Assembly (NCBI GenBank): GCA_964016885.1
Contig: OZ024741.1
Span: 280,364,001 to 280,428,000 of the forward strand
Length of the DNA stretch: 64,000 bases
Direction: 5' to 3'
From: Eledone cirrhosa
Lineage: Eukaryota
Shown here: positions 2,088-59,033 of the stretch, piece by piece
Numbering within the stretch: position 1 is the stretch's first letter
Layout of the letters: every line of letters begins with the position of its first letter
Position numbers and translations under genes: made by a program
Notes under the pieces: generated by a model
Database searches by the model: none
What the model saw: only the letters and a program-made list of their open reading frames with translations
Told to the model about the DNA's origin: nothing

Positions 2088-2183
2088 AATCACATCCTGA
2101 GCACGAGTGGCTGACATGTAGTGCTAACAGACAACATCATGAACCAGAGAAATTAATGCTGACTCAGATTATACCTTCCAGTG
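2088..2183 (+). CDS. KDM3: KDM3/JMJD1 JmjC lysine demethylase, internal exon (first one visible in this window)
   Basis: Acceptor tttctag, donor gttagt. Encodes SHPEHEWLTCSANRQHHEPEKLMLTQIIPSS, a KDM3-type motif. Phase matches the next exon. Confidence 0.85.
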
Positions 2184-2292
2184 GTTAGTATTATTCTTTT
2201 GCATTCTTAACTATATCACTTTTTGTAAACATAAATGCTTAACATTCTGAGTATATTTCATTTTTAAATAACAATTGTAACCTTTTTCATAG

Positions 2293-2396
2293 CACTTTGG
2301 GACCTTGGAAAACGTGCTCATGAGATAAGAAAGAAATGGAACATAAAAACTGAATGTAGCTGTGAAAGAAACTTATCCAAAAATGGTGTGAATCAG
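2293..2396 (+). CDS. KDM3: KDM3 exon
   Basis: Acceptor catag, donor gtaagt. Encodes ALWDLGKRAHEIRKKWNIKTECSCERNLSKNGVNQ. Confidence 0.85.
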
Positions 2397-2493
2397 GTAA
2401 GTTTTTTTTTTTTTTTGTTGTCTTTATATCTAGAATTCAGAAATTGCTTTTCTTAATGCCAATCTAATGTTTTTTTCAAATTTTATCATTTAG

Positions 2494-3171
2494 GAAGCTA
2501 ATCAAGAAACTGAGAATCATGTTTCCTCTGAGAATACCAAGATACCAAATGGTACAGAAGATAACTGCAATAGTGGTAAGAACAAGAAGATGCGGACGTC
2601 CCAACCAGAAAAACACTCCAATTACAACCCTGATGCCAATTCTCCACTATGTCTTCTAGCAGATGTTGCTATGAATTCTGAAAACAGTCGAGATCGCACT
2701 GATCCACTGCTGAATAAGAAAGAATCTGAAGAGAAAAAATCCAATACTGAAGAGCCCCTCTCCCCAAATGCTGGAGGTGCTGACAAAAAGACCCCTGGTT
2801 GCTCCACCTTGAGAGAACTCTTGACAAAAACAGCTGGTAAAGTAAAACCAGGAGCTGATAGTAAGAAATCTTCTAAACCAAAAACTGTGAGGGACACTCT
2901 TGAAGATATTATTCAATCTGTAGTTGGAAAGGCCTTTCCTAAAGAGAATGAAACTGTTCCAATGATGAAGTTAATGCATTATATACCTCGCATGGGCCCA
3001 CGAATAATAGCTCGTGAGATTCCAATATTAAAACACACTTTGACTGAAACCAGTGTCCTCTATCCAGACGTTCCTCATTCTTGGCTTTGTGATGGTCGCT
3101 TACTTCGCTTACATGAACCAAAACATAAGAATAACCTCCCTATTTTTCAAGAGCAGTGGAAACTGGGCTGT
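2494..3171 (+). CDS. KDM3: KDM3 large exon (226 codons)
   Basis: Acceptor tttag, donor gtaagt. Contains PLCLLADVA, an LxxLL box (STLRELL) and PHSWLCDGRLLRL...FQEQWKLG. Confidence 0.92.
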
Positions 3172-3275
3172 GTAAGTTATTTTTTATTAGCCTTAGATAT
3201 GTATCAATTTTTTGCTTTTTAAACCCATGCATTTTGAAGTTCAAATTTATTTTATTTTTTCCTTTCACTTTCTAG

Positions 3276-3447
3276 CCTGTGCTTGTCTCTGGTGTACAAA
3301 GGTATTTGAAATCTAAAATTTGGAAACCTGAAAGCTTCTGTGAACAATTTGGTCATATAGACAATGACTTGGTAAACTGTCGTACAGGAGATGTTTGGAT
3401 TGGACATTCAATGAAAGTTTTCTGGGATGGTTTTGAATATATAAGAA
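3276..3447 (+). CDS. KDM3: KDM3 exon
   Basis: Acceptor tctag, donor gtaagt. Encodes PVLVSGV...WKPESF...DLVNCRTG...FWDGFE. Confidence 0.92.
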
Positions 3448-3719
3448 GTAAGTACTTTGAAGACATTTTGTTAGTTTAGTAGATGTGTTGAACAGATGGT
3501 GGATCAAACTCTGTAGCAGTAGCTCGAGTGAGATGTACATGGAATAATTTCTGAGAACTAAGTGGTGGGCTAATGAAACTAAATGGAAAGTTAAATGTTG
3601 CTTGTATGAGAAGCTATGGCAAAATGAAGTGTCATGTGGCCTACAAAGCTAACCTCTAACTGGGAAAATGGCTTTAAAACACTTTTTTAAAGAGTTTTGG
3701 ACCTCAGTTCCAATGGTGA

Positions 3720-3950
3720 GTGTTTAAGTTCAAATAACAATGAAATCGGTGTGCAAGTGGTTGAGCATCACACACACGTGCACCGTTAATGTAGTTTTCA
3801 GTGAGGTTCAGCATGTCACAGTGACAAGCTGAATCATAGGGCCAACTCATTTTCCCAGCTGAGTGAAATAGTGCCTTGCTCAAGAACAAAAGGTGTCACT
3901 GGGAAGTGAAATTATGATCATGAGCTGAACACTCTAACCACTAAGCCAGG
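3720..3950 (-). mobile_element. Old tRNA-derived (CORE-like) SINE in a KDM3 intron; relatives at about 11065-11175 (+) and 48220-48400 (+)
   Basis: A-box-like ttagtggttag head followed by a shared ttgagcaagrcactttatttcac...actcagctgg segment. Confidence 0.55.
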
Positions 3951-4061
3951 TATTTTCACTTAAATGCAATGTTCCTTTATAAATTAGTTACTAATTTTTT
4001 TTTTTAAACAATTTATTAATCTTCAATGTTTATTTATATTTTATTTTTTGGTATATTTCAG

Positions 4062-4283
4062 AACGTCTTAGGGATAAAAATAATGATCCAATGCTTTTAA
4101 AACTAAAAGATTGGCCTCCAAGTGATGATTTCAGTGATATTCTTCCTCAGAGATTTTTAGATTTGATGCAGGCACTTCCTCTTCCAGATTATACAAATCG
4201 TTTAGGAATATTGAATTTATCTTCCCGCCTTCCAGATTTTCTGGTGAAACCAGATCTGGGACCAAAAATGTACAATGCTTACG
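4062..4283 (+). CDS. KDM3: KDM3 exon (start of JmjC region)
   Basis: Acceptor ttcag, donor gtaaat. Encodes LKLKDWPP...[24 protein letters not shown]. Confidence 0.95.
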
Positions 4284-4465
4284 GTAAATATATTTTATAT
4301 TATTAGTGAGATACTAGAGCGATTATGGAAAAGTCATTTTTACATCAACTTTTCCATATTGGCATTGGTTGAACGGGATGTTTTGAGGCAGTGTTTTACA
4401 TCCGGATTTCCTTCCTAGCACCAACCCTTTTAGTTACGTCTCATCATATGTGGGAATACATTTGA

Positions 4466-4627
<162 letters not shown>

Positions 4628-4993
4628 TAACCAACTGAAACTCTGCCATATATATATTTAAAACTGAAAAATATATTTTTGTCTCCGTCTAATGCAAAAG
4701 AAAAAAAAAGAGCTATGGGATGAGTGCACACATTATGTATTCTGGGAACCCAAACAGTAAATGTTAACGATTGGCAACTGGAATGTTACAACCATTACAA
4801 ATAAGGAGTAAGAATTAGTGGAAGAGGCCGGAAGTTAACGGCTAGATTTACTGAAGGGTTCCTCAACAAAGTTCTGTCTCTGTATACCTTAGATTTGAAA
4901 CCATGCCAAATGCATATATTTTTATATGTATATTTCTTTTTATTTATAAATATATATTTTTAGCTGAGAATATTCTTTTGCTTTTCTTTTCAG

Positions 4994-5133
4994 CTGCCCT
5001 TAAAGCTATTGATGAGGCAGACTGTGATATTATTACGAAGCAACGGGTAAGAGAAGTCAATGAAATCCCAGGTGCACTCTGGCATATTTATTGTGCTGAG
5101 GAAGCTGATAAAATTAGAGATTTGCTAAATAAA
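4994..5133 (+). CDS. KDM3: KDM3 exon
   Basis: Acceptor ttcag, donor gtaagc. Encodes PGALWHIY...DKIRDLLNK. Confidence 0.93.
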
Positions 5134-5235
5134 GTAAGCTATTTTCTATTTTTAACCCAGTGTCCAGTTAAATTAAATAGTATATTTGTTAATATATGAT
5201 CTGATTCTATATTTATAATTTCTTTTTCTCCCAAG

Positions 5236-5412
5236 GTTGGGAAAGAAAATGGTCAGCAGGTCGAACCTGATCATGATCCTATTCATGATCAGAGCTGGTA
5301 TCTGGATTCTGAACTGCGGGACCGTCTTAACAAAGAATATGGCGTCCACGGTTACACCATTGTGCAATGTCTGGGTGATGCTGTGTTCATTCCAGCTGGA
5401 GCGCCTCATCAG
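5236..5412 (+). CDS. KDM3: KDM3 exon with distal catalytic His
   Basis: Acceptor ccaag, donor gtgagt. Encodes [12 protein letters not shown]...[16 protein letters not shown]. Confidence 0.95.
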
Positions 5413-5515
5413 GTGAGTGTTGTAAACAATAGAGCACAGAGGAGAAAAAAATACACAAACAAGTTGCTTTAGTTTCCTATATATTTGCTTACACAATTTC
5501 CTTGTGGTATTCTAG

Positions 5516-5650
5516 GTACGAAATTTGCACAGTTGTATCAAAGTGGCAGAAGACTTTGTCTCACCAGAACATTTGAATCACTGTTTCCGCATGACTCAGG
5601 AATTCCGTCATTTATCAGATTCTCACAGTAATCATGAAGATAAACTACAG
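5516..5650 (+). CDS. KDM3: KDM3 exon
   Basis: Acceptor tctag, donor gtaatt. Encodes [19 protein letters not shown]...HEDKLQ. Confidence 0.95.
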
Positions 5651-6343
5651 GTAATTTTTCTTTCTCAACTTTGAAATTTAGCTAGATAATTTCCTAAAAT
5701 ATGATTGTAAAGTAATCAGTTAACATTAAAGAACTATTATTAACTAGTTATTAACAGTAAAAATTCACTTCACATGTGCTTATTAAAACACCAAAAGATA
5801 ATAAATTTTTGTATTCTTTAGAAAAGTGGTTTATAAAAGATGGTAGTTTTTGTATGGACCCATAACACTTAATGGAGTCCTAGGGGCACCATAGTGACAT
5901 ACAGCATGTCTTGAGCATTTCAAACCTGGTGGAGCTCATCCCCTCTCTTGCCAATATCTTAGTGGAGAGAAAGAGTGCTACTTTTTTCTTAACTTCAACA
6001 GGATGAAAAGCAAAATTAACCATGGCAGGATTTGAATGCAGAACACAAGGGGCTGGAATGAATACTGCAAAGCATTCTATACAACCTTCTAAGGGTTCTG
6101 TCAGTTTGCTGTTGATATCCTATAATTCCAGAAAAGTTCACTTTTAATTTAAGTATACATTCAGAGTATACATTCAGCTAAAAGCCAACTGTTAACAATG
6201 TTCACACAGTTTTATCAATTTAAAAGTTAACTAAAAATCTATAATTAAAACTCTTATAAAGGCATGCTGCCTTTATAAAAGATTATAGATACTTATATAA
6301 TGAGATTGTTGTCTACCATTGAAATTGTATTGTTTTTCTTCAG

Positions 6344-6412
6344 GTAAAAAATATCATTTATCATGCTGTGAAAGATGCTATTGCTGTCCTTGATCAGAAA
6401 CCCGTGGAATGA
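6344..6412 (+). CDS. KDM3: KDM3 terminal coding exon
   Basis: Acceptor ttcag. Encodes VKNIIYHAVKDAIAVLDQKPVE followed by TGA. Confidence 0.93.
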   Translation, partial: VKNIIYHAVKDAIAVLDQKPVE

Positions 6413-11429: not shown

Positions 11430-11603
11430 GTTAGTCTTGGTTCAATTGTGGGTAACCACAGTAAGTAAGGTACTCAATACGTTAGTAGAGTGTAAACATG
11501 TTTAATATAGAAATGGCTTCTACGGGACTAGAGCTGTTTTATTCAAAAGAAATCATCAGGAAAGCTTTCTAGTCCTGTAGAAGCCTTTTCTATATTAAAC
11601 ATG
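11430..11603 (-). mobile_element. Penelope-like terminal-repeat remnant with inverted repeat and degenerate hammerhead
   Basis: Inverted repeat 11497-11531/11569-11603. The minus strand reads CTGATGA-TTTC-TTTT-GAAT-AAAAC-AGCT-CTA, then the tail GTATTGAGTACCTTACTTAC. Short TA runs lie on both sides. Confidence 0.6.
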
Positions 11604-20637: not shown

Positions 20638-21887
20638 TCATCATCATCATCATCATCAACGTTTAACGTCCGTGTTCCACGCTTGCATGGGTTTGGACGG
20701 GGGTTTTCCCACTTGAGGCAAGAGTGATTGTCTTGCTCGCATAGGACTGTCTGGCAGGTTTTCTACAGTTGGATGCCCTTCCTAACACCAACCACATTTA
20801 CAGTGTGGGTCTGGGAGGTTTTTACCGTGTTGCCTACACGGCCACATTACAGCGTGGACTGTGTGTTTTTTGTCGTGACACCTACACGATCTCATTTGTT
20901 TCGGCCTGGATGGTGTGGCACCAACATAACTTTACATAGGAGGGGGTGGTGTGGATGGGGAGGGGGTGGTGGGACGGGGGTGTATTTTGTTAGAGATGCC
21001 TACTGGCTGTAGTAGGTTTTACTATGTATTTAGGTAAGGTGGGTCTTCTCTATTACTGAGTACCGCCAAAGGTCTCGGTCCAGTGACATTGTCTTGGAGA
21101 GGTGTAAGTGTGTGAGGTCGGAGTTTATCAGCTCGTCCCAGGATTTTCTAGGTCTACCTATTCCGTGGCTACCGTCTATCTTTATTGCCCTGCACTTTGT
21201 TATACAGCTATCGACTTGCATGCGCATCACGTGTCCATACCAACGTAGCCTTCTCTCGAGTAAACAACATCTGATCCCTCTTATTTCTAATTTTTTCCTT
21301 AGTTCGTTTATGCTTTGCCGTTCACGTATATTACTATTACACATCCAGCGGAGCATGCAAGCTTCATTCCTCTCTAGTCTGCGTATATCCTCTGCACACA
21401 ATGCCCAGGTCTCACTGCCATGCAACATTGCTGTTCGTATGCAGGCATCATACAACCTGCCTTTCATTTTTAGGGAGAACCCTTTAGCGGCTAATAGTGG
21501 TATAAGCTCTCTGAACTTTTTCCATCCAGTTCTGACTCTAGCTACTGTACTTTCAGAGCACCCTCCCCCACTGCTGATTTTGTCACCCAGGTAACGGAAG
21601 CTGTCCACTATTTCTATAGAGCCCTCTGCGCAGTTGTAAGAGCTAGTATTCGGTGGGCACTTGCTGCTACTTATTGCACCAGAGCACCGCCCACATGTAA
21701 AATCTATGTTCTTGGTTAGCTTAGCTGTGATCCCACTACATCTTTTATGCACCCATACTTTGCATTTGGGACATAAAATGGAGTTTCTACCTACACCTTT
21801 CCTACACACTGAGCATGGCCATTTCCCGGTAGGGACCGCCGCCTTATTTTCTTTCCTACAAACTAGAACTTTAGTCTTAGCCAGGTT
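20638..21887 (-). mobile_element. 5'-truncated RTE-clade LINE (second subfamily): open frame with PHD finger and C-terminus, about 390-bp 3'UTR, (ATG)n tail
   Basis: ORF ends at 21030 and contains FRYLG, LERRLRWYGHVMR and GRPRKSW. (CAT)n starts at 20638. Confidence 0.92.
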
Positions 21888-22959
21888 ATATATATATATT
21901 AAAAATTTATATTCTGCTATGTATTGTGTACCTTACTTACTGTGGTTACCCCTGATTGGACCCGGTATACACACACATATAAATATATTTAGTTTAATGG
22001 TATGTAACTTTATATTATTATTGATTCACCAATTTGAACACTTGATGCATAAGTGGGCCAGCTTGACTATGTGGTATTGTATATTTGGTGTTTTACTATG
22101 GTGTTATACTTCATAAGCAGGAGTGTTAATCACACCTCGTTCCTACTCATAATAATTATTATTATTGTTATTATTATATACATATATATAATTTTATTAG
22201 GGCCGAGCCAGAGTCCTGTTACTCTGGACTTTTTCCTTTGTGTTTACATTGTCATCACAACACACACACACATTATGTGTTTATTTTATATTTTCTCCTG
22301 GGAACCTGTCAACGAGAAAGTCTCTACGAAATCGAACCGACAAAAAATAGCAACTAATTTCCGTCAAACTATATCGTTATATGGGAGGGGGCTGTGCATC
22401 CCATTTTTTAGTGGTGGTTCATGGAGCAAAAAAGATTAAGAACCATCGTTTTATTCTTTTAAAAAAGAAAGAACATATTGGACAATGTAGTCCTAGGTTA
22501 TACAAAAAGGTGTGGTGGTCACGTTTGCAATGTTTTTTTTTATATTTTTTTTATAGACTCGTTTAAGGCTGACTTGAGGCTCAGCAACAACTATACTATC
22601 ACTACTTTCTCGATTATATCATAAATATCGACTGCTAGTAACAATTTCATCTATTTATGATATATTACTAATACAGTCACGTCGCCGAAGAGTGGGTCTT
22701 ATGGATTTGCTCGTTCCATATGGCAGGCATAGACGCTGCCAGTTTGCATTAGGTCTTCTTTTAATTGCAGTTAGGTTTGGTAAAAAATCAGTCTTCTTTT
22801 TTTTTCTCTTTTTTATCTGTGACAAGAAACGTCAAATCCCAGTTCTCCAGGGAGCGCGTGCACTTTTACGAATATTAAAAAAGTATTTTTATGTTTATTT
22901 TTTTGCCGGCACTGACTGTCACAATTTTTTCTTCTCACTTTTCATTCATAAACATAAAC

Positions 22960-23800: not shown

Positions 23801-24000
23801 TTAAAAAAAATGACTCCTACATGACTAGTTCTGTCTCCTTTATTAAGAATTTATCTCTGACCAATTCTTAATAAAGGAGACTAGACTAGTCCTGTAAGAG
23901 ACACTTTTTAATAAATTAATATACCTCTATACTTGATGTATTGAGTACCTTGCTTTAATCGTGGTTCCTTTCCATTCTTAACGGAACACCTTACAACGAA
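23801..24000 (+). mobile_element. Penelope-like terminal remnant with inverted repeat, ending in (TA)n
   Basis: Perfect 19-bp inverted repeat 23833-23851/23863-23881 within longer imperfect arms. Shares ctagtcctgta and GTATTGAGTACCT (23938-23950) with the 11430 element. Confidence 0.55.
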
Positions 24001-25350: not shown

Positions 25351-25539
25351 GTGTTAAGTATTTCCGTAGAAAAGGCAAAGGAAAGAAGAGTGCTCCATGT
25401 ATTGTACAGAGCTATTTAATTACATAATAAACAACACAATATAATTATTCCATTTCCAAAGGTTTCAAGACACTAGACGATTCTTACAGAAATGTCCAGC
25501 AGCCCATTCATCAGATTATATATATATATATAATATACA

Positions 25540-26123: not shown

Positions 26124-26163
<40 letters not shown>

Positions 26164-26293
26164 GTAAAAGTTCTATTTAAATTGTTGGGATACAACAAGC
26201 AAATATTTTTATAACTGATATAAAGCACTCAACAAGTATTTGAAGTAAACATACGATATTAACAAATGGAAACTATATTTATAAAACTATATT

Positions 26294-26358
26294 TATTTCA
26301 TTATACATATTTCAAGGACACCAAGTTAAATTATGGTGTGCTTTCATCAGATAAAATA
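26294..26358 (-). ncRNA. Identical hammerhead motif on the minus strand (left arm)
   Basis: Exact reverse complement of 26513-26577. Confidence 0.8.
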
Positions 26359-26512
26359 TAATATAGAGCAGTTTTATAAATAAATATTGACATACCCTTA
26401 AAGAATGCAACCGTTACTGTTGGAAGCTCCCGGGAGCTCCGGACCTTCCAACAGTAACGGTTGCATTCTTTAAGGGTATGTCAATATTTATTTATAAAAC
26501 TGCTCTATATTA

Positions 26513-26577
26513 TATTTTATCTGATGAAAGCACACCATAATTTAACTTGGTGTCCTTGAAATATGTATAATGAAATA
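26513..26577 (+). ncRNA. Type I minimal hammerhead ribozyme motif (core intact)
   Basis: Stem I UAUUUUAU/AUGAAAUA; CUGAUGA 26521-26527; stem II AAG-C-ACACCA/UGGUGU-C-CUU; GAAA 26558-26561; U-AUGU-A; AUA triplet with the predicted cut after 26569. Confidence 0.8.
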
Positions 26578-27216
26578 AATATAGTTTCCATTTGTTAATA
26601 TCGTATGTTTACTCCAAATACTTGTTGAGTGCTTTATATCAGTTATAAAAATATTTGCTTGTTGTATCCCAACAATTTAAATAGAACTTTTACATATATA
26701 TATATATATATATAAATTTTGCATTTTCGTGTATGCATAGTAATATATATGTGTATGTATGTACATGTACACATGAAGGAAATCATGTATTGTCAACATC
26801 TGGTGTCTTGTCCATCATCCACTGCTAATCAGTTCTCTCTCCTGTCACTTTTTACCATAGTTGGGGTATTTATATAAGTTAAAATTGACTTTTTTTTAGC
26901 CAGTTTAACTTGTACACCCTCCCCGTGAGATTTAGGCTTAAATTTAATATATCATCATCATCGTTTTACGTCAATGTCACCACGCTAGTATGGGTTAGAC
27001 TGGTTGTCCTGATGTGGGCAATGCCAGGTCAGGTGACCGTGTCTTGCTCATACAGGAGTGGTTTTGGCTTGGTTTCTACAGCTGGATGCCCTTCCTAACA
27101 CCAACCTCATTTATAGTGAGTACTGTGTGCTTTTTTAACGTGGAACCTATATATATGTATACAATGTAAATGTCCACTTGTTGACCAAGAAACCCTTGAT
27201 GCAAATTAGCTGCCAA

Positions 27217-28231
27217 AGAGAGGAGTTTAAGACTGGCTGTCCATGGGAACTTCTCTATGCTGACGATCTGGTTCTTATAGCAGAATCAGTAGAGGAGCTA
27301 GAGAATAAATTCTGGCTATGGAAACAGCAGTTGGAAGCAAGAGGACTGAGAGTGAACCTAGCTAAGACAAAAGTGTTGATGAGTAAAAAAGAGGACAAAA
27401 CTCTGATTCCGTCAGTGAAATGGCCATGTTCGATATGCAGAAAAGGAACTGGCATAAATTCTATAAAATGCACACAATGCAGATCCTGGGTACACAAGAG
27501 ATGTAGTGGGATAGCAGGCAAACTAACAAGTAGGGAGAAATACATATGCAGTAGATGTACAGGGAAATTAGACAGTAGAAGTCGCATTGATAGACACATT
27601 TTTCAAATGCAGGCGGGTGCTATAGAAGTGGTGGATAGCTTCCGGTACCTAGATCAGATTAGCATGGGAGGAGGGTGTTCTGAGGCCATAGTATCTAGAA
27701 TAAGGATGGGTTGGAAGAAGTTTAGGATGCTGCTTCCTCTGCTGACGAAGAAGGGTTTCTCCCTGCGTACGAAAGGCCGGTTATATGATGCCTGTGTGAG
27801 GAGCGCGATGGTAGTGAGACATGGGCAACAACTGCAGAGGATATGCGACGGCTGGAGAGAGAAATGAGGCAAGCATGCTCCGTTGGATGTGCAATGTCAA
27901 TGTATGTGAATGACCCAGCATGAATGTGTTGAGAGAGAAACTGTCTGAGAGGGATAGAATGTAGTGTGCGAGAGAGGAGACTGAGGTGGTATGGATATGT
28001 GATGCGCATGGAGGATGACCAAAGAAGTGCTCGGAAATGCCAGTTGAAGGAAGACGTGGTAGAGGTAGACCACGAAAAACATGGGCGGAGGTGGTGAGAA
28101 CAGACCTCAGATTGCTGAAGCTCACGGTGGAGATGACGAAGGACCGTGACAAGTGGAGAGATGCTGTGCTGAATAAGACCCATCCCACCCTTGCAAGCAG
28201 GGAAACGCGGACGTAAAATGATGATGATGAT
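27217..28231 (+). mobile_element. 5'-truncated RTE-clade LINE with PHD insert, frameshifted
   Basis: LLYADDL...GLRVNLAKTKV...PHD...FRYL, with an (ATG)n tail. Same subfamily as 478-1720. Confidence 0.92.
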
Positions 28232-28365
28232 ACACACACACAAACAAAAGAGTAGCGACGTTTTAGAATTAAAATAGAAATAGAAGTGTTACCATAACAT
28301 TGATATAGTCTAATAATTGGGTGTATAAACCTGTTCAATGGGTTTATACACCCCATTATTAGACT

Positions 28366-28546: not shown

Positions 28547-28569
28547 ATATATATATATATATTATAATA

Positions 28570-28900
28570 ATAATACAAGGACAATTTGTTCGGCCTTCAT
28601 TATGTTTATTGATTAGTGACATGCGTTTCGCTATTGATCACCTCAAGGTTCAATCTGATTTGATCTGACCCAACTCTGGAATCAAAAGCTTGTCGAACCT
28701 CTGCTGTTGTAATTACAACAACAGAGGTCTGACGAGCTTTTGATTAATAGCAAAACGCACGTCACCAATCAATAAACGTAACGAAGGCCTAACAAATTGT
28801 CCTTGTATTATCATATTACTCTGTCTAGATCTACACCTCGCCACTGACGTGCACCTAAACATCAAGTGCTCACCTGAGTGAACCTACAGTAACTTCACAT
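28570..28900. mobile_element. Fold-back Penelope-like remnant with two CpG-decayed hammerheads, flanked by (TA)n
   Basis: Palindrome 28570-28811 centred on ttgtaattacaa. The + strand reads GGT-CTGACGA-GCT..AGC-AAAAC-GCAC-GTC-ACC (28726-28766). The other arm keeps GAAAC-GCAT-GTC. Confidence 0.78.
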
Positions 28901-33230: not shown

Positions 33231-35869
33231 TACCTAATATCACCAATCTACAGAATCAACTGTTATTTTTCATAACAAAAAAAAAAATAAAAGGTTTGGA
33301 AAGAGATTATAAAAAAAACAACCTAAAGATATATCTCATTCCTTGTAATTATTATTTTATTTTTGGCATTCTTTTAAACAAAGTAGTTGTTAATGTTTAG
33401 ACTTTCTAATAGGCACATTATACAGAAGTATTCGTTGGCGACAATCCAACTTAATCTATATATAAATTTCTGTGATTCTGTCACAACACGTAAAGAGAGA
33501 GGAGTAGTTTGACTACCTCATACTACTCCTCTCTCTTTACGTCTGCTGTCTGCGTAAACGTATGTGTGTGTAAAAGGAAGGAAAGGGATGGTGAAAAAAC
33601 TACGAGGTGTGTGAGTGTATGTGTATTTGTGTGAATGTACGTGTTTGTGTGAATGCATGTCTGTCTGTGAGTGTATTTTTGTAAGTGTGTTTGCATGTTT
33701 ACATTTATACACTCATACATATAAATGTATGCACATGCATACATGTGCATATGCATACACATGCGTGTCAGCGTATGGAAAAAAATTCTAGTTCAGTGAT
33801 ATTTCTACCTATTTGGTGATGTAATCCAGGTGCAGGTGTAAATTCTCATCTAATTTTTTTTTTTTCATTTTTCCTCTTCAAAAGAGCCTAACTAGAACTT
33901 CGTTAGTGCTCTAGGGCTAGGAAAACTGTCGAAAAACTCTCACTTCTCAACTCACAACTTAAATTGATATTTTGTGTCTAATTAAACCTTTTGTGATGGT
34001 ATTTCTAATGAAATACTCTCTATTTCAATTACTTATTGAAGAATTTTGAGGGGTTTACTAAAATTATTTCATTACTAAGATAGTAACTTACCGTATACTT
34101 TTTATATAAAATTATGTCAGAAGGTTTTAAATTAAATGGTCATTAAGAATTCAATTTTAACCTATCGTCACTAGCTGGGTCTATAAAATAATTATCAGTA
34201 ATTTACTAGTCCGAGTGCCATCTCCAGTAACTATTCTAGAGAGAAACAGATGTGGTTTACAACATATAATCATCAGAAATCCAATAATTTAGAATTGTTA
34301 GTCTTGTCTAATTTATACCCGCCCCACCAATACTATCAATGACTCTGTGTGACAATGGTGACACATGTTTTATACCAAATCACCCAAGTTTTGTGATACA
34401 AAACTCCCCATTTTAAAATATTCATATTTATATTAAAAACTTTCAATCAAAAAATTTAATAAATTTTTTTTTAGGTTAATTATTTTGAAGATTTTCAAAA
34501 TTAATTCAAACAAATAGGTAGTGTATTTCATTAGATATACAGTAACAAAAGACATCATCACTATCACCCTCATCATCATTTAACAACTATTTTTCCATGC
34601 TTGCCTGATTTAAATGAGTCAGGTCAGGTAACCCACGTCTTGCTCATACAGTTTCTACAGCTGGATGCCCTTCCTAACACCAACCATGTTATAGGGTGAA
34701 CTGGGCGCTTTTTGTTGTGTTACCAGCACGGCCACCTTACAGGATGGACTGGGTGCTTTTTGTCATGTCACCAACAAGACCGCCTTACAGGGTGAACTGG
34801 GCATTTTTTCTTGTCACCAACATGACCACCTTACAAGATGGACTGAGTGCTTTTGTTGTTGTGGCACCAGATCATCACTCAGGGTGGACTTAGTGCTTTT
34901 AGTCATGGCAACAGCATTGTGTAAGGTACAACAAGCCGTACTTGACTAAGTTCTAATTTTTTGCTTTCACTCAGTGGACTTCTGTTGGTTTTGACAATGA
35001 GTGTTTCAGTTGTTCAATTAATATGAGCATGCAACTGATGAAATAATGTTTAAGTGGTGGACTATTCCAGACACATGTACCCTTAATGTAATTCTCACCC
35101 TGTGTTAGGCTGAATCTCCATGAGAAATATGTTATGGGTGCAAGTATCTGTGGAATGCTCAGCCACTTGCACATTAGTTTTGTTGATTCAATCAAGTGAA
35201 AACACAGCTTGTTTTGTCGGCACAGTATGACCAAATAGTTAAGGACTTTGCTTTGCAATCATTGTATCTTGGATTCAACTGCACTGCATGGCATCTTGGG
35301 CCAGTGTCATTTACTATAGCCATGAATCAATCCATTGCCATGTGAGTGAAATTGGGTAGATGGAAACTGGCAGCTTGTCAGGTGAACTGTACCTGTAATT
35401 CAAAGGACCAGCCTTGTCACAAACACTGTCATACTGAATCTTCCTGAGAATTACATTAAGGGTATGCATGTGTGTGTGTGGAATGCTCAGCCACTTGCAT
35501 GTTAATTTTAGGAGCAAGCTGTCCCATTGATGAAACAACTGGAACCTTCATTGTTGAAACCAATGAAGGTCCATCTCTAAATAGTCAACCAAACAACTAG
35601 ATTTGATCCATAGTTTCAACACTCCAATCTTGGTTCAAGTACAATTCTGAAATAATAAACAAACTATGAAACAAATCTGCTACTGGTCTGAACATATTAT
35701 TATTGTTACAGATTAACTTGGTTTTTAGCAGCCACTCTGTAAAGGTGATAAAATAAGTATGAACAATATACAGGATTAAATGAATCAAATAAGCCACTTT
35801 CACCTTTCAAAACAGAAACTTTAATTAGTGTCACCTCAAAGGAAGTAATTACTTTTACTACAAACTTCA

Positions 35870-45996: not shown

Positions 45997-46630
45997 ATAT
46001 CTTTGGATAAACTCCAGTTGTGATATCTTTGGATAAACTCCAGTTGTGATATCTTTGGATAAACTCCAGTTGTGATATCTTTGGATAAACTCCAGTTGTG
46101 ATATCTTTGGATAAACTCCAGTTGTGACATCTTTGGGTGAAACCCAGTTGTGACATCTTTGGGTGAAATCCAGTTGTGACATCTTTGGATAAACTCCCGT
46201 TGTGACATATTTGAATAAACTCCCATTGTGACATATTTGAATAAACTCCCGTTGTGACATATTTGGATAAACTCCCGTTGTGACATATTTGGATAAACTC
46301 CAGTTGGACATATTTGGATAAACTCCAGTTGTGACATATTTGGATAAACTCCAGTTGTGACATATTTGGATAAACTCCAGTTGTGACATATTTGGATAAA
46401 CTCCAGTTGTGACATATTTGGATAAACTCCAGTTGTGACATATTTGGATAAACTCCAGTTGTGACATATTTGGATAAACTCCAGTTGTGACATATTTGGA
46501 TAAACTCCAGTTGTGGCATCTTTGGGTGAAATCCAGTTGTGGCATCTCTGGATAAACTCCAGTTGTGACATATTTGGATAAACTCCAATTGTGGCATCTT
46601 TGGGTGGAATCCAGTTGTGACATCTTTGGG
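45997..46630. repeat. 26/25-bp minisatellite, about 24 copies
   Basis: Unit tttggataaactccagttgtgacata, with blocks of variant units. Confidence 0.95.
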
Positions 46631-46754
46631 TAAAATTAGCATTCATGATGTTTAATCTATCTGTGAAGCTGTATATCTTGCTCAAGGTTTTGTCCCCCTC
46701 AAATAAATATCCCCTTCACTTCTATTGCTACAATTTCCACTTTAATTCAGATAT

Positions 46755-55116: not shown

Positions 55117-56887
55117 CACCGTGTAACAACAAATTTTTTTTTCTCTGTTCCTGGCTTGTAATCACTTTTTTTGTGTTGCTTAGGTCCCAAATAAATAAAA
55201 AAAAGTGCTATTAAACAGTTAAAAGTTTGGGTTTGTAAAAATTCTAAGCTATTCACTAGAATTATTTGTATGCTGGATTTTACGTTATATGTAAGTTTAA
55301 TTTGCTTAAGTTAAATGATTTTTTATATATGTTTCAGGGTAAATTAAAATTATGAAATAAAGAGTAATACCTAAAGAAAATTATAAAAGTGCAATAAAGT
55401 ATAAAATTGTTAAAAAGTGGATTAAAGAGATTTATTGATACTGGGGTACCAGAAAAAGTTCCTCGCTTCCCAAACCAAAAAGAAGTCAATGACTTGGTCA
55501 GGGATATGGGTCTGACCAAGTCCAATGCAGAGCTATTCGTCTCCAGGATGAAGCAGTGAAACTTGGTCAAGGAGGAAGTGCAGGTGACAAGTCAGAGAAA
55601 TCGACACAAACCTTTCTCAGGCTTTTACACTCTTAGGGATGGCTTCTGCCATGACGTGCCTGGACTGTTTGACGTTATTGGGGTGCCCAAGGAGTAGCGG
55701 CTATTTATAGACAGCTCCACCACAAGTTTGAAGGCTGTCCTCCTCCACAATGGAAACAAGTTCCTGACACTGCCCCTAGCTCATTCAGTCTGCCTGAAGG
55801 AAGATTACTACAGTGTGGAAGTCCTCTTGGAAGCTCTGCAATACAACCAGTACAATTGGGAAATCATTGGAGACTACAAGATGGTGGCTTTCCTGCTTGG
55901 ACTCCAAGGATGCTTTATCAAATTCCAATGCTTCCTCTGCCTTTGGGACAGCAGAGCCACCTCTGACCACTACAAAAGAAAGAACTGGGAGCAGCGAACA
56001 GAATTTGTAGTTGGGACCCGGAACATCATGTGGGAGCCACTGGTTGATCCCAGGATTGTGCTCATGCCGCCACTGCACATTAAGTTGGGGTTGATGAAGC
56101 AGTTTGTGAAGGCTCTCAACCAAGAATCAGCCGCTTTTAAGTACCTTCATGATTTCTTCCCCAAGTTATCTGAGGCCAAAATCAAAGGTGGAATTTTTGT
56201 TGGACCTCAGATAAAGGTGTTTGAGTCTACCGAATTCTCCAATAAGCTCAATAGGATTAAGAGAACAGCATGGAACTGTTTTAAGGCAGTTGTTAAGGGC
56301 TTCCTGGGCAACTACAGAGCTGAAAACTACCAGCAACTGGTGCAGGATCTGATAAAGGCTTTTGGCGCCATGGGATGCAGGATGTCGCTTAAACTCCATA
56401 TCCTGGACGCTCACCTGGAAAAATTCAAGGACAATATGGGCACCTACTCAGAAGAACAAGGCGAACGATTCCACCAAGATGTGAAAGAGATAGCGCGGAG
56501 GTACCAGGGCCACTACAATGAAAAAATGATGCGGGACTATATCTGGGGGTAGTGCGGGAATGCGACCTGGACTACAACCGCAAATCCAGGAAATCCAGTC
56601 ATTTCTGACTTGTATAAGTTGCTTTATAAGTGTTATTTGTTTTTACTTGTTTGCTTTTGATAAGCTTGTGTAATAAAATAAATATATACTCTGTTGATTT
56701 AATTATATGAACTGATAAATTTTAAAAAAATGTTTTTTCTTGAAAAATATGAAAATTTCGAAATATCAAACTCCTGACCACAAACCCAAACTTCTGATTA
56801 AATAAAAGTGTTTTTTTTATAATAATGGGATATAACAAACCAGTAAATGACACTTAGAACCGGGGAACAAAAATATGTTACACGATG
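55117..56887 (+). mobile_element. Chapaev3-type (CMC) DNA transposon, internally deleted
   Basis: Termini CACCGTGTAACA/TGTTACACGATG, longer degenerate subterminal inverted similarity, 3-bp TAA TSD, and a transposase remnant inside. Confidence 0.8.
55452..56608 (+). pseudogene. Chapaev3-like transposase pseudogene (N-terminus missing, stops and frameshifts)
   Basis: PRFPNQKEVNDLVRDMGLTKSNAEL..KQ*, LFIDSSTTSLKAVLLHNGN, PPLHIKLGLMKQFVKAL, SEEQGERFHQD. Confidence 0.85.
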
Positions 56888-57639
56888 TAATTTGTTTCTC
56901 TAGCCAGGACATTTTATTGTACCTTCCCTAGCTGTGATAATATTTTGAGGAAAAGTTGCCTACACTGTATTAGCATCTTAACTAGAGAAAGAAATTTCTC
57001 TCTCTTTCTCTCTTTCATTTTTTTCTTTCTCTCTTCTCTCTCTCACTTGCTCTTTCTCTTTCTTTTTCTCACACTTACTCTCTTTCTTTCTTTCTTCCTC
57101 TCCCTTTCTCCACCCCTTTCTCTATCCCCCTCTTCATTCCTCTCCTACTTAATGTTATAAACACCAGATCTAATGGAATGGACCTTCATCAGTTTCCACG
57201 ATCAGTATTCTAGATGTTTAACCAATGGAACATCCTACCCATGGAATGGGCAGGATGTTCCATTGTCACTGGTTGAGTATTCCACAGACACATGTTGCCG
57301 TTATCGTAATTCTTAGGGAAATTCGGCATGACACAATGTCACAAGGCTGACCCTTTTGAATTACAGGTACAGTCCATCCAACAGGCATCCAAACATTTTC
57401 TGTCTACCCAATTTCACTCACAAGGCATGGGTTGACTCGAGGATCTAATGTTTGCGAAGTGAACTTAACCATTCAGCCATTGCTGTGTTCACATAGAATG
57501 GATGTTTTATTTCCCCGGTTTATGAGTTTGTATCTTTTTTTTTTTTTTTTTTAATAATTAGAATTTTTCATATGAAATATTATTTTCAAAAGTATTATCA
57601 ATCATCGCAATTAAATAGTAACAGTTACAAAGTAAGGAG

Positions 57640-58459: not shown

Positions 58460-59033
58460 ACTTTTATAGAAGTCAAATAGAGCTAGACTTTTATAGCAGT
58501 CAAGTAGAGCTAGACTTTTATAGAAGTCAAATAGAGCTAGACTTTTATAGAAGTCAAATAGAGCTAGACTTTTATAGAAGTCAAATAGAGCTAGACTTTT
58601 ATAGAAGTCAAATAGAGCTAGACTTTTATAGAAGTCAAATAGAGCTAGACTTTTATAGAAGTCAAATAGAGCTAGACTTTTATAGAAGTCAAATAGAGCT
58701 AGACTTTTATAGAAGTCAAATAGAGCTAGACTTTTATAGAAGTCAAATAGAGCTAGACTTTTATAGAAGTCAAATAGAGCTAGACTTTTATAGAAGTCAA
58801 ATAGAGCTAGACTTTTATAGAAGTCAAATAGAGCTAGACTTTTATAGAAGTCAAATAGAGCTAGACTTTTATAGAAGTCAAATAGAGCTAGACTTTTATA
58901 GAAGTCAAATAGAGCTAGACTTTTATAGAAGTCAAATAGAGCTAGACTTTTATAGAAGTCAAATAGAGCTAGACTTTTATAGAAGTCAAATAGAGCTAGA
59001 CTTTTATAGAAGTCAAATAGAGCTAGACTTTTA
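58460..59033. repeat. 27-bp minisatellite, 21 almost identical copies
   Basis: Unit acttttatagaagtcaaatagagctag. Only copy 2 differs (2 substitutions). Confidence 0.97.

Follow-up and report, generated by a model that had tools for sequence, protein, structure and literature searches.

The near-perfect inverted repeat at 26164-26693 (530 bases), which lies between two (TA)n runs in the 64,000-nt stretch of DNA that we analysed (the window), is probably a head-to-head pair of hammerhead-bearing end modules from one insertion of a Penelope-like element (PLE), that is, a 5'-truncated copy together with an inverted copy, and likely a dead-end by-product of that insertion. We observed the anatomy of the palindrome, a family of related repeats in public sequencing runs, junctions of its members with (TA)n, head-to-head junctions at variable positions and covariation in stem II of the hammerhead. 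The module may come from the end of an autonomous PLE or may itself be a short element that is non-autonomous. A first-pass annotation had described the locus as an 'ORF-less fold-back ribozyme element'. The locus is indeed ORF-less, folds back and sits in (TA)n; the varied junctions and solo copies of the family speak against a unit of its own design. The features are as follows.

26141 to 26163, no strand: left (TA)n target run of 23 nt, preceded by a (CA)n run.
26164 to 26436, minus strand (sense of the hammerhead): left arm, a 273-nt terminal module with its 5' end at the apex and its 3' end at (TA)n, as judged from family depth.
26164 to 26250, minus strand, mirrored at 26607-26693: optional 3' extension of ~88 nt, recognised from copies that end at 26251-26261 in (TA)n.
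26270 to 26283, no strand: 14 nt present in the left arm only, likely the family state, with a probable right-arm loss between short direct repeats.
26276 to 26382, minus strand: extended stem I of the left ribozyme, with a 13-bp distal helix (26370-26382 with 26276-26288) that holds the mirror of TATAAAA (26372-26378).
26294 to 26358, minus strand: type I hammerhead motif of 65 nt, cut predicted at the mirror position 26302.
26425 to 26444, no strand: GC-rich apex with nested palindromes of 14 bp (26425-26438), 8 bp (26433-26440) and 6 bp (26438-26443).
26437 to 26693, plus strand: right arm, a 257-nt inverted copy without the 14 nt after stem I and without 2 nt at the apex.
26493 to 26499, plus strand: TATAAAA, a possible TATA box whose bases also serve as 5' strand in the distal helix of stem I.
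26513 to 26577, plus strand: identical type I hammerhead motif of 65 nt, cut predicted after 26569.
26694 to 26714, no strand: (TA)n target run on the right, in which any target-site duplication would be indistinguishable.

The palindrome and its placement in (TA)n, both claimed in the first-pass annotation, were found where it had put them. With the arms drawn as in that annotation (26164-26426 and 26445-26693, 249 bp on the right), they are set apart by a single substitution, at 26243, and by an indel of 14 nt at 26270-26283. The best axis of symmetry lies at 26436/26437 and yields 255 identities, 2 substitutions and indels of 2 nt and 14 nt over 257 aligned positions. The 18-nt 'spacer' between the annotated arms belongs to the palindrome itself as its decayed apex, and there is no true spacer. 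The distance between the two hammerhead cores, which lie on opposite strands, is 171 bp. We found no ORF in the six frames of the arm, and neither a second copy of the arm nor a tandem arrangement of it in the 64-kb window. The palindrome had been called young; a recent origin is plausible, and gene conversion could also preserve the identity of the arms.

The two 65-nt hammerhead motifs are identical and divergent, with the layout that had been described for them. Each consists of an 8-bp stem I with one G-U pair, the core CUGAUGA (26521-26527), a stem II of nine pairs and one C-C mismatch (26528-26557), GAAA (26558-26561), and a stem III of 2 bp with a 4-nt loop, the triplet being AUA. As in a type I hammerhead, the invariant core (CUGANGA, GAAA, UH) and three helices are present, and the end of stem I is open. 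A strict type I descriptor, demanding at least 8 pairs in stems I and II, matched none of 100 block-shuffled windows and a loose descriptor matched two of 100; a still looser pattern search was uninformative, giving 4 matches, with as many in 44 of 100 shuffles. In the Rfam/Infernal scan that the first-pass annotation had proposed, no hammerhead model reached the gathering score in the window, nor E<=10 in searches of 651 and 121 bases. A match to MIR9481 within the element reflects the hairpin only. The first stem II pair is A-U here and in both variant classes of the family, in contrast to G10.1-C11.1 in the metazoan PLE consensus. The missing Rfam match and the A-U pair speak against the description 'apparently intact'. 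To judge from its sequence, the motif is genuinely a type I hammerhead, of the sort that PLEs carry, and a predicted ribozyme.

Stem III had been described as palindromic. Its 8-mer does pair with itself, with two G-U pairs, but the dimer duplex is weak at only -2.2 kcal/mol. Because the two hammerheads sit on opposite strands, no transcript of the locus holds two sense copies, and we discarded a dimer in cis on these grounds. Folding of a single arm placed the active ribozyme fold ~5 kcal/mol above the free ensemble.

Although the cores are identical, the two ribozymes differ in the outer part of stem I. The left-arm stem I region folds at a z of -3.35 (0 of 200 shuffles), the right counterpart at -2.24 (4 of 200). 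One substitution and a 14-nt length difference separate the arms, as the first-pass annotation had noted, but its '14-bp duplication' in the left arm is less likely than a deletion from the right arm, because the left form completes the 13-bp helix and has the highest family depth. In run X1, the bin that holds the 14 nt (26260-26295) reaches a depth of 1.95 million, the highest of all, compared with 0.25 million in its right-arm counterpart (26584-26619), whereas other mirrored bins differ only ~1.4- to 2.5-fold. The family base at 26288, which makes up 97% of X1 depth, retains the distal stem I pair as U-G. Loss of the 14 nt from the right arm thus appears most likely. A TATAAAA does precede each core, at 26493-26499 and its mirror, and the same letters form one strand of the distal stem I helix.

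Words of the element occur in 10 of 13 listed public runs, from organisms A-G and six studies. Sequences were compared at 80% likeness for X1, X4 and X5 (contigs) and X11 (raw RAD reads); X6-X10, with small shares, entered in the run count only. X1 may be the source sample. None of the listed runs that carry words of the element is an RNA run. Exact-motif scans of two metagenome collections and of prokaryote genome and viral collections gave 0 matches, as expected for an animal repeat. In X1, the median of the summed depth is 392,000 over the arms, compared with 13 on the right flank, which is unique. The resulting ratio of ~3x10^4 (extremes 10^3-10^5) is a rough guide rather than a copy number, and we read it as 'thousands or more'. 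The existence of further copies, on which the earlier annotation had staked its proposal, is borne out by this high-copy family in several organisms.

The shape of the family argues for retrotransposition. Depth in X1 is greatest across the hammerhead and to its 3' side and declines toward the apex, where it is 5-20 times lower than in the hammerhead region; such a gradient is the pattern of 5'-truncated retrotransposed copies. One X1 record holds a solo copy (26256-26364), which begins shortly ahead of the hammerhead and passes into ~900 nt of unlike DNA, and in an X5 contig the arm exits near the apex into a (GA)n run. Many family copies in X1, X5 and X11 end at 26251-26261 straight into (TA)n (24 of the 579 loose ends being listed), so that the family has short and long 3' ends ~88 nt apart. 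The predicted cut site is 124-138 nt from the long 3' end and ~41-51 nt from the short one.

Eighteen distinct joints were visible (15 of 49, as listed, and 3 more), comprising 1 strand switch, 3 joints within the arm and 14 across the centre. The centre-crossing joints, which make up 14 of the 17 same-direction joints, use 14 different pairs of points, and in 5 of those listed both sides fall upstream of the hammerhead. The joints have short sides of 21-39 nt, and some of those placed in stem I, itself an inverted repeat, may belong elsewhere; the seven or so away from stem I plainly join two differently truncated arms head to head. We read the palindrome as an insertion by-product because junctions are cut at many places and solo copies exist, and its geometry as made afresh at insertion rather than selected because the junctions vary. 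Both arms of the locus share bases that are in the minority in the family: the other base accounts for 98% and 90% of X1 depth at 26413/26458, and for 69% and 75% at 26368/26503. The arms would therefore derive from one template or have been homogenised later.

These data also bear on whether the palindrome is real. No record of X1, X4, X5 or X11 spans the locus itself, which speaks for a fold-back artefact of sequencing or assembly. However, the arms differ at four places, the mirror stops at (TA)n with unrelated flanks outside, and two independent X1 contigs, diverged by 14 and 12 letters in ~100, span the palindrome centre. As a class, such palindromes are not an assembly artefact, and we regard an artefact of either kind at this locus as extremely improbable. 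Hardly more credible is a fold-back DNA transposon of the MITE kind, with TA as its target and a captured hammerhead inside. Tc1/mariner-type MITEs have long inverted arms and TA flanks, and both are present here; the two 3' ends, the 5'-truncation gradient, the solo arms and the variable centres are at odds with fixed terminal inverted repeats. The solo arms, two 3' ends and variable centres largely exclude this reading.

The hammerhead fold is under selection in the family. Variants within the 65-nt motifs (6 rows at 5 distinct sites, among the 40 of 170 variant rows listed) all fall in stem/loop II, a clustering with a chance of ~0.02 if the rows were a random draw, and none of the 12 of 28 indel rows listed touches the hammerhead core. 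Two large classes of X11 loose ends were compared with the window by visual inspection. In one, at least 8,348 of 10,024 reads carry both changes that turn the pair 26533-26552 from C-G to U-A; in the other, at least 2,247 of 5,285 reads turn 26529-26556 from A-U to G-C. Furthermore, the free core position N7 varies in these classes and stem II gains two pairs at the loop. The RAD reads of X11 may stem from few loci; the same substitutions are common in X1 contigs. The C-C mismatch at the fourth stem II position (26315-26347 region) is kept in both major variant classes, and its retention amid compensatory changes in its neighbours hints at a structural role. The hammerhead would have been inherited from the parent's terminal repeat, where selection would act on it. 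The covarying long stem I and the conserved C-C mismatch define a hammerhead variant overlooked by Rfam.

An endonuclease-bearing PLE protein acting in trans could account for the locus. The protein would nick (TA)n, and reverse transcription would start ~125-140 nt past the hammerhead cut site, or ~40-50 nt past it in other copies, and would run to the GC-rich short palindromes at the 5' end of the module. The second arm may then have been copied from the same template by snap-back self-priming at the apex palindromes, as proposed in the available text of PMC3846280, and we lean moderately towards this route. The other route, to which we give a smaller though substantial chance, is a second cDNA primed from a nick in the opposite strand, as the accessible part of PMC11167929 would allow.

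Insertions of this form are known. In Pen1-Pen6 of Adineta vaga, according to PMC3846280, inverted pLTRs meet head to head, the junction carries palindromes and TATA motifs occur; the arrangement is read there as self-priming. PMC8557442 gives, in the legend to its Fig. 2, a PLE scheme with inverted 5'-truncated copies, and reports tails and (TA)n targeting. The same paper also presents Penelope-13_HM, which has a 5'-truncated copy in inverted orientation and bears one and the same hammerhead on either strand. For Schistosoma mansoni, PMC4209133 reports pairs of minimal hammerheads, one on each strand, at distances of 100-700 bp, and it describes a bracovirus-borne PLE with a second hammerhead motif on the opposite strand. 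Further background on the subject is found in PMC8969392.

Our locus shares with the insertion units of endonuclease-positive PLEs the head-to-head terminal modules of ~200-270 bp, the palindromes at the junction, the TATA-like motif, the optional 3' extension and the AT-rich target. The copies of the family are 5'-truncated with an adjacent inverted copy, head to head and with variable junctions; the hammerhead lies in a terminal repeat near the 3' end (~50-200 nt from it in PLEs), and insertion is in (TA)n at the locus and in the loose ends of three runs. A partial head-to-tail tandem that forms a direct pLTR, as PLEs can have, is absent from this locus and from the joints listed. In contrast to the known units, there is no ORF between or beside the arms, and both arms carry the long 3' end: the extension is ~88 nt on both, compared with a tail of 30-40 bp in PLEs, often present at one end. 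This extension, the lack of an Rfam hammerhead match and the partial set of listed joints are points against the PLE reading. A Pfam scan of 150 of the 178 reading frames of the window (at least 62 aa) found no GIY-YIG domain, which also counts against it, the only matches being LINE-type RT/PHD pieces and a JmjC exon.

The parent PLE could equally belong to the clade Hydra, Neptune, Nematis or Poseidon. The module resembles Hydra-clade PLEs in its sense hammerhead ~100-200 nt from the 3' end, its (TA)n targeting and the extra base on each side of stem II; these PLEs, however, have a stem III of 3-4 bp and a GUH-type triplet, compared with 2 bp and AUA here. Hydra-1_Obim, a Hydra-clade family of Octopus bimaculoides presented in the available portion of PMC8557442, has a different hammerhead, with stems unlike those of our element. 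Eight arm motifs had no match in the Naiad, Chlamys and Hydra consensus sequences accompanying the accessible part of PMC8557442, apart from one unrelated GC-rich 12-mer, and arm motifs had no relevant match in those supplements of PMC4209133 that were at hand; in such supplement searches, 70-letter line breaks may hide a motif.

The minimal hammerheads of metazoan PLEs, as far as the available text of PMC4209133 describes them, agree with ours in the CUGANGA/GAAA cores, the long stem II, the tiny palindromic stem III/loop 3 and the U-rich or AU-rich flanks, and are mostly found in ORF-less truncated copies. The palindromic 15.2-16.2 and loop 3 and the long stem II of the consensus given there are present in our motif; where the consensus has an unpaired base after A9 and then G10.1-C11.1, ours has A-U in place of that pair. 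The known stem I is 4-5 bp, whereas ours has 8 bp with further extensions of 5 bp and 13 bp in the left arm, and the known first stem II pair is G-C, in contrast to A-U and a conserved C-C mismatch here. The same partial source reports no cleavage by a single minimal motif and low cleavage by dimers. According to the available sections of PMC11167929, an Anolis PLE hammerhead cleaved only with the element's protein, cleavage was not needed for insertion in vitro, and extension in vitro occurred on both strands, with two RT start sites.

A quite improbable alternative takes the arm for a non-LTR retrozyme monomer, present here as a dimer inserted in inverted orientation. Retrozymes, described in the accessible portion of PMC7229834 as tandem 150-400 nt hammerhead repeats that yield circular RNA, are fitted by the length (~270 nt), low GC, single type I hammerhead and high copy number of the arm, and they share with it a short ORF-less unit abundant in molluscs. 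The retrozyme reading overlaps with our own, since the seen part of bioRxiv 10.64898/2026.07.22.740005 argues that retrozymes are pLTR derivatives. Retrozymes, however, form head-to-tail tandems, whereas the element here is inverted: no head-to-tail joint of the arm occurs among the joints listed (15 of 49 and 3 more), a partial view of the family, the window holds no tandem, and 3' ends enter (TA)n rather than another unit. Moreover, the long stem II with its A-U first pair is non-canonical for a retrozyme.

We found no description of this repeat family in the literature; Repbase, Dfam or the library of O. vulgaris may contain it. For cephalopods, the available text of PMC13282606 reports 31 recently active Penelope-like families in Octopus vulgaris and makes no mention of hammerheads in that portion, and the sections seen of PMC6962438 report 235 Hammerhead_1 matches in the giant squid.

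The first-pass annotation had further claimed that read-through RNA would mask the ribozyme, and that this amounted to a built-in switch. Folding predicts the masking: forcing the plus-strand ribozyme costs 83.5 kcal/mol in whole-unit RNA. The penalty is only 5-8 kcal/mol when the RNA starts at or to the right of 26380, and rises to 12 for a start at 26360, 30 at 26340 and 30-84 at or left of 26340. The switch fares less well. The junctions vary among copies, and any head-to-head copy of a folded RNA masks its ribozyme, so that masking looks like an unselected side effect in these models. For a transcript with its single sense copy, we predict poor cleavage of that copy by itself and none when the RNA also contains the other arm.

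This folding behaviour is one ground for an improbable alternative, in which the whole fold-back unit propagates as a non-autonomous element, the palindrome or a one-arm transcript (starting at TATAAAA or the apex) is re-copied, and pairing of the arms is a selected on/off switch. It would explain why both arms are essentially full-length with the same end base, why the predicted dependence on RNA start is so sharp, and why further diverged copies bridge the centre; two junctions have a depth of 54-63, compared with 6-30 in contigs of single copy, so some few junctions may exist more than once. On the other hand, junction points differ from copy to copy, solo copies exist and the apex is far shallower than the hammerhead region, the switch arises unselected in any head-to-head copy, and the TATAAAA belongs to stem I.

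A bolder version, unlikely though slightly less so, holds that the arm is a complete ORF-less hammerhead element of ~270 nt with ~10^4 copies in a cephalopod-like genome, mobilised by a borrowed PLE protein. Its GC-rich, self-priming 5' end would be built for fold-back dimers, thousands of dsRNA hairpins of 100-250 bp would be seeded, and strand-specific folding would decide between self-cleavage and silencing. If so, the fold-back dimers would be near-perfect dsRNA and substrates for ADAR and small-RNA pathways in a lineage known for heavy editing.

Read as a PLE insertion by-product, the locus is a clean, recent example of a known structure and leaves existing knowledge unchanged. An abundant, apparently still mobile family with varied junctions is nevertheless material for the choice between snap-back and two-strand priming, a question that is open in PLE transposition (to judge from the available parts of PMC3846280 and PMC11167929), so that the family should be useful for deciding it. 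The importance would be larger if fold-back copies prove to be a large, edited or diced source of dsRNA.

Elsewhere in the window, an unrelated hammerhead-like motif at 25439-25521 (minus strand) abuts (TA)n, with a 7-bp stem I, CUGAUGA, a hairpin of ~15 pairs, GAAA and a poor stem III; the loose descriptor for such motifs matched two of 100 shuffled windows, and the motif is possibly the decayed end of another ribozyme-bearing family or due to chance. An older palindrome at 28548-28833 starts in a (TA)n run, has arms that are 72-83% alike and contains no hammerhead by our descriptors, and smaller palindromes lie at 23805-23909, 11497-11603, 28307-28365, 33488-33542 and 57223-57265. These may be fold-back insertions of other families.

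No exons were recognised near the element in the window. The nearest recognised gene encodes a KDM3/JMJD1-type JmjC histone demethylase, with exons at 2099-6391 (plus strand), and ends near 6391, ~20 kb upstream; its best named relatives are bivalve and gastropod proteins at ~50-60% identity, and one further relative stands at 78%. The named relatives point to a mollusc, and the landscape, rich in microsatellites and SINEs, looks like that of an octopod. Broken copies of LINE type, which retain pieces of reverse transcriptase and PHD finger, lie at 499-1741, 21033-21932 and 27139-28157, the pieces 499-1453 and 27212-28157 being 92.6% alike. A 284-aa open frame at 55698-56552 (plus strand) has no Pfam match and is protein-like, perhaps a transposon remnant. 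Finally, two minisatellites are very homogeneous, one at 58460-59033 with 21 copies of a 27-bp unit at 99% and one at 46002-46634 with 24 copies of a 26-bp unit at 92%.
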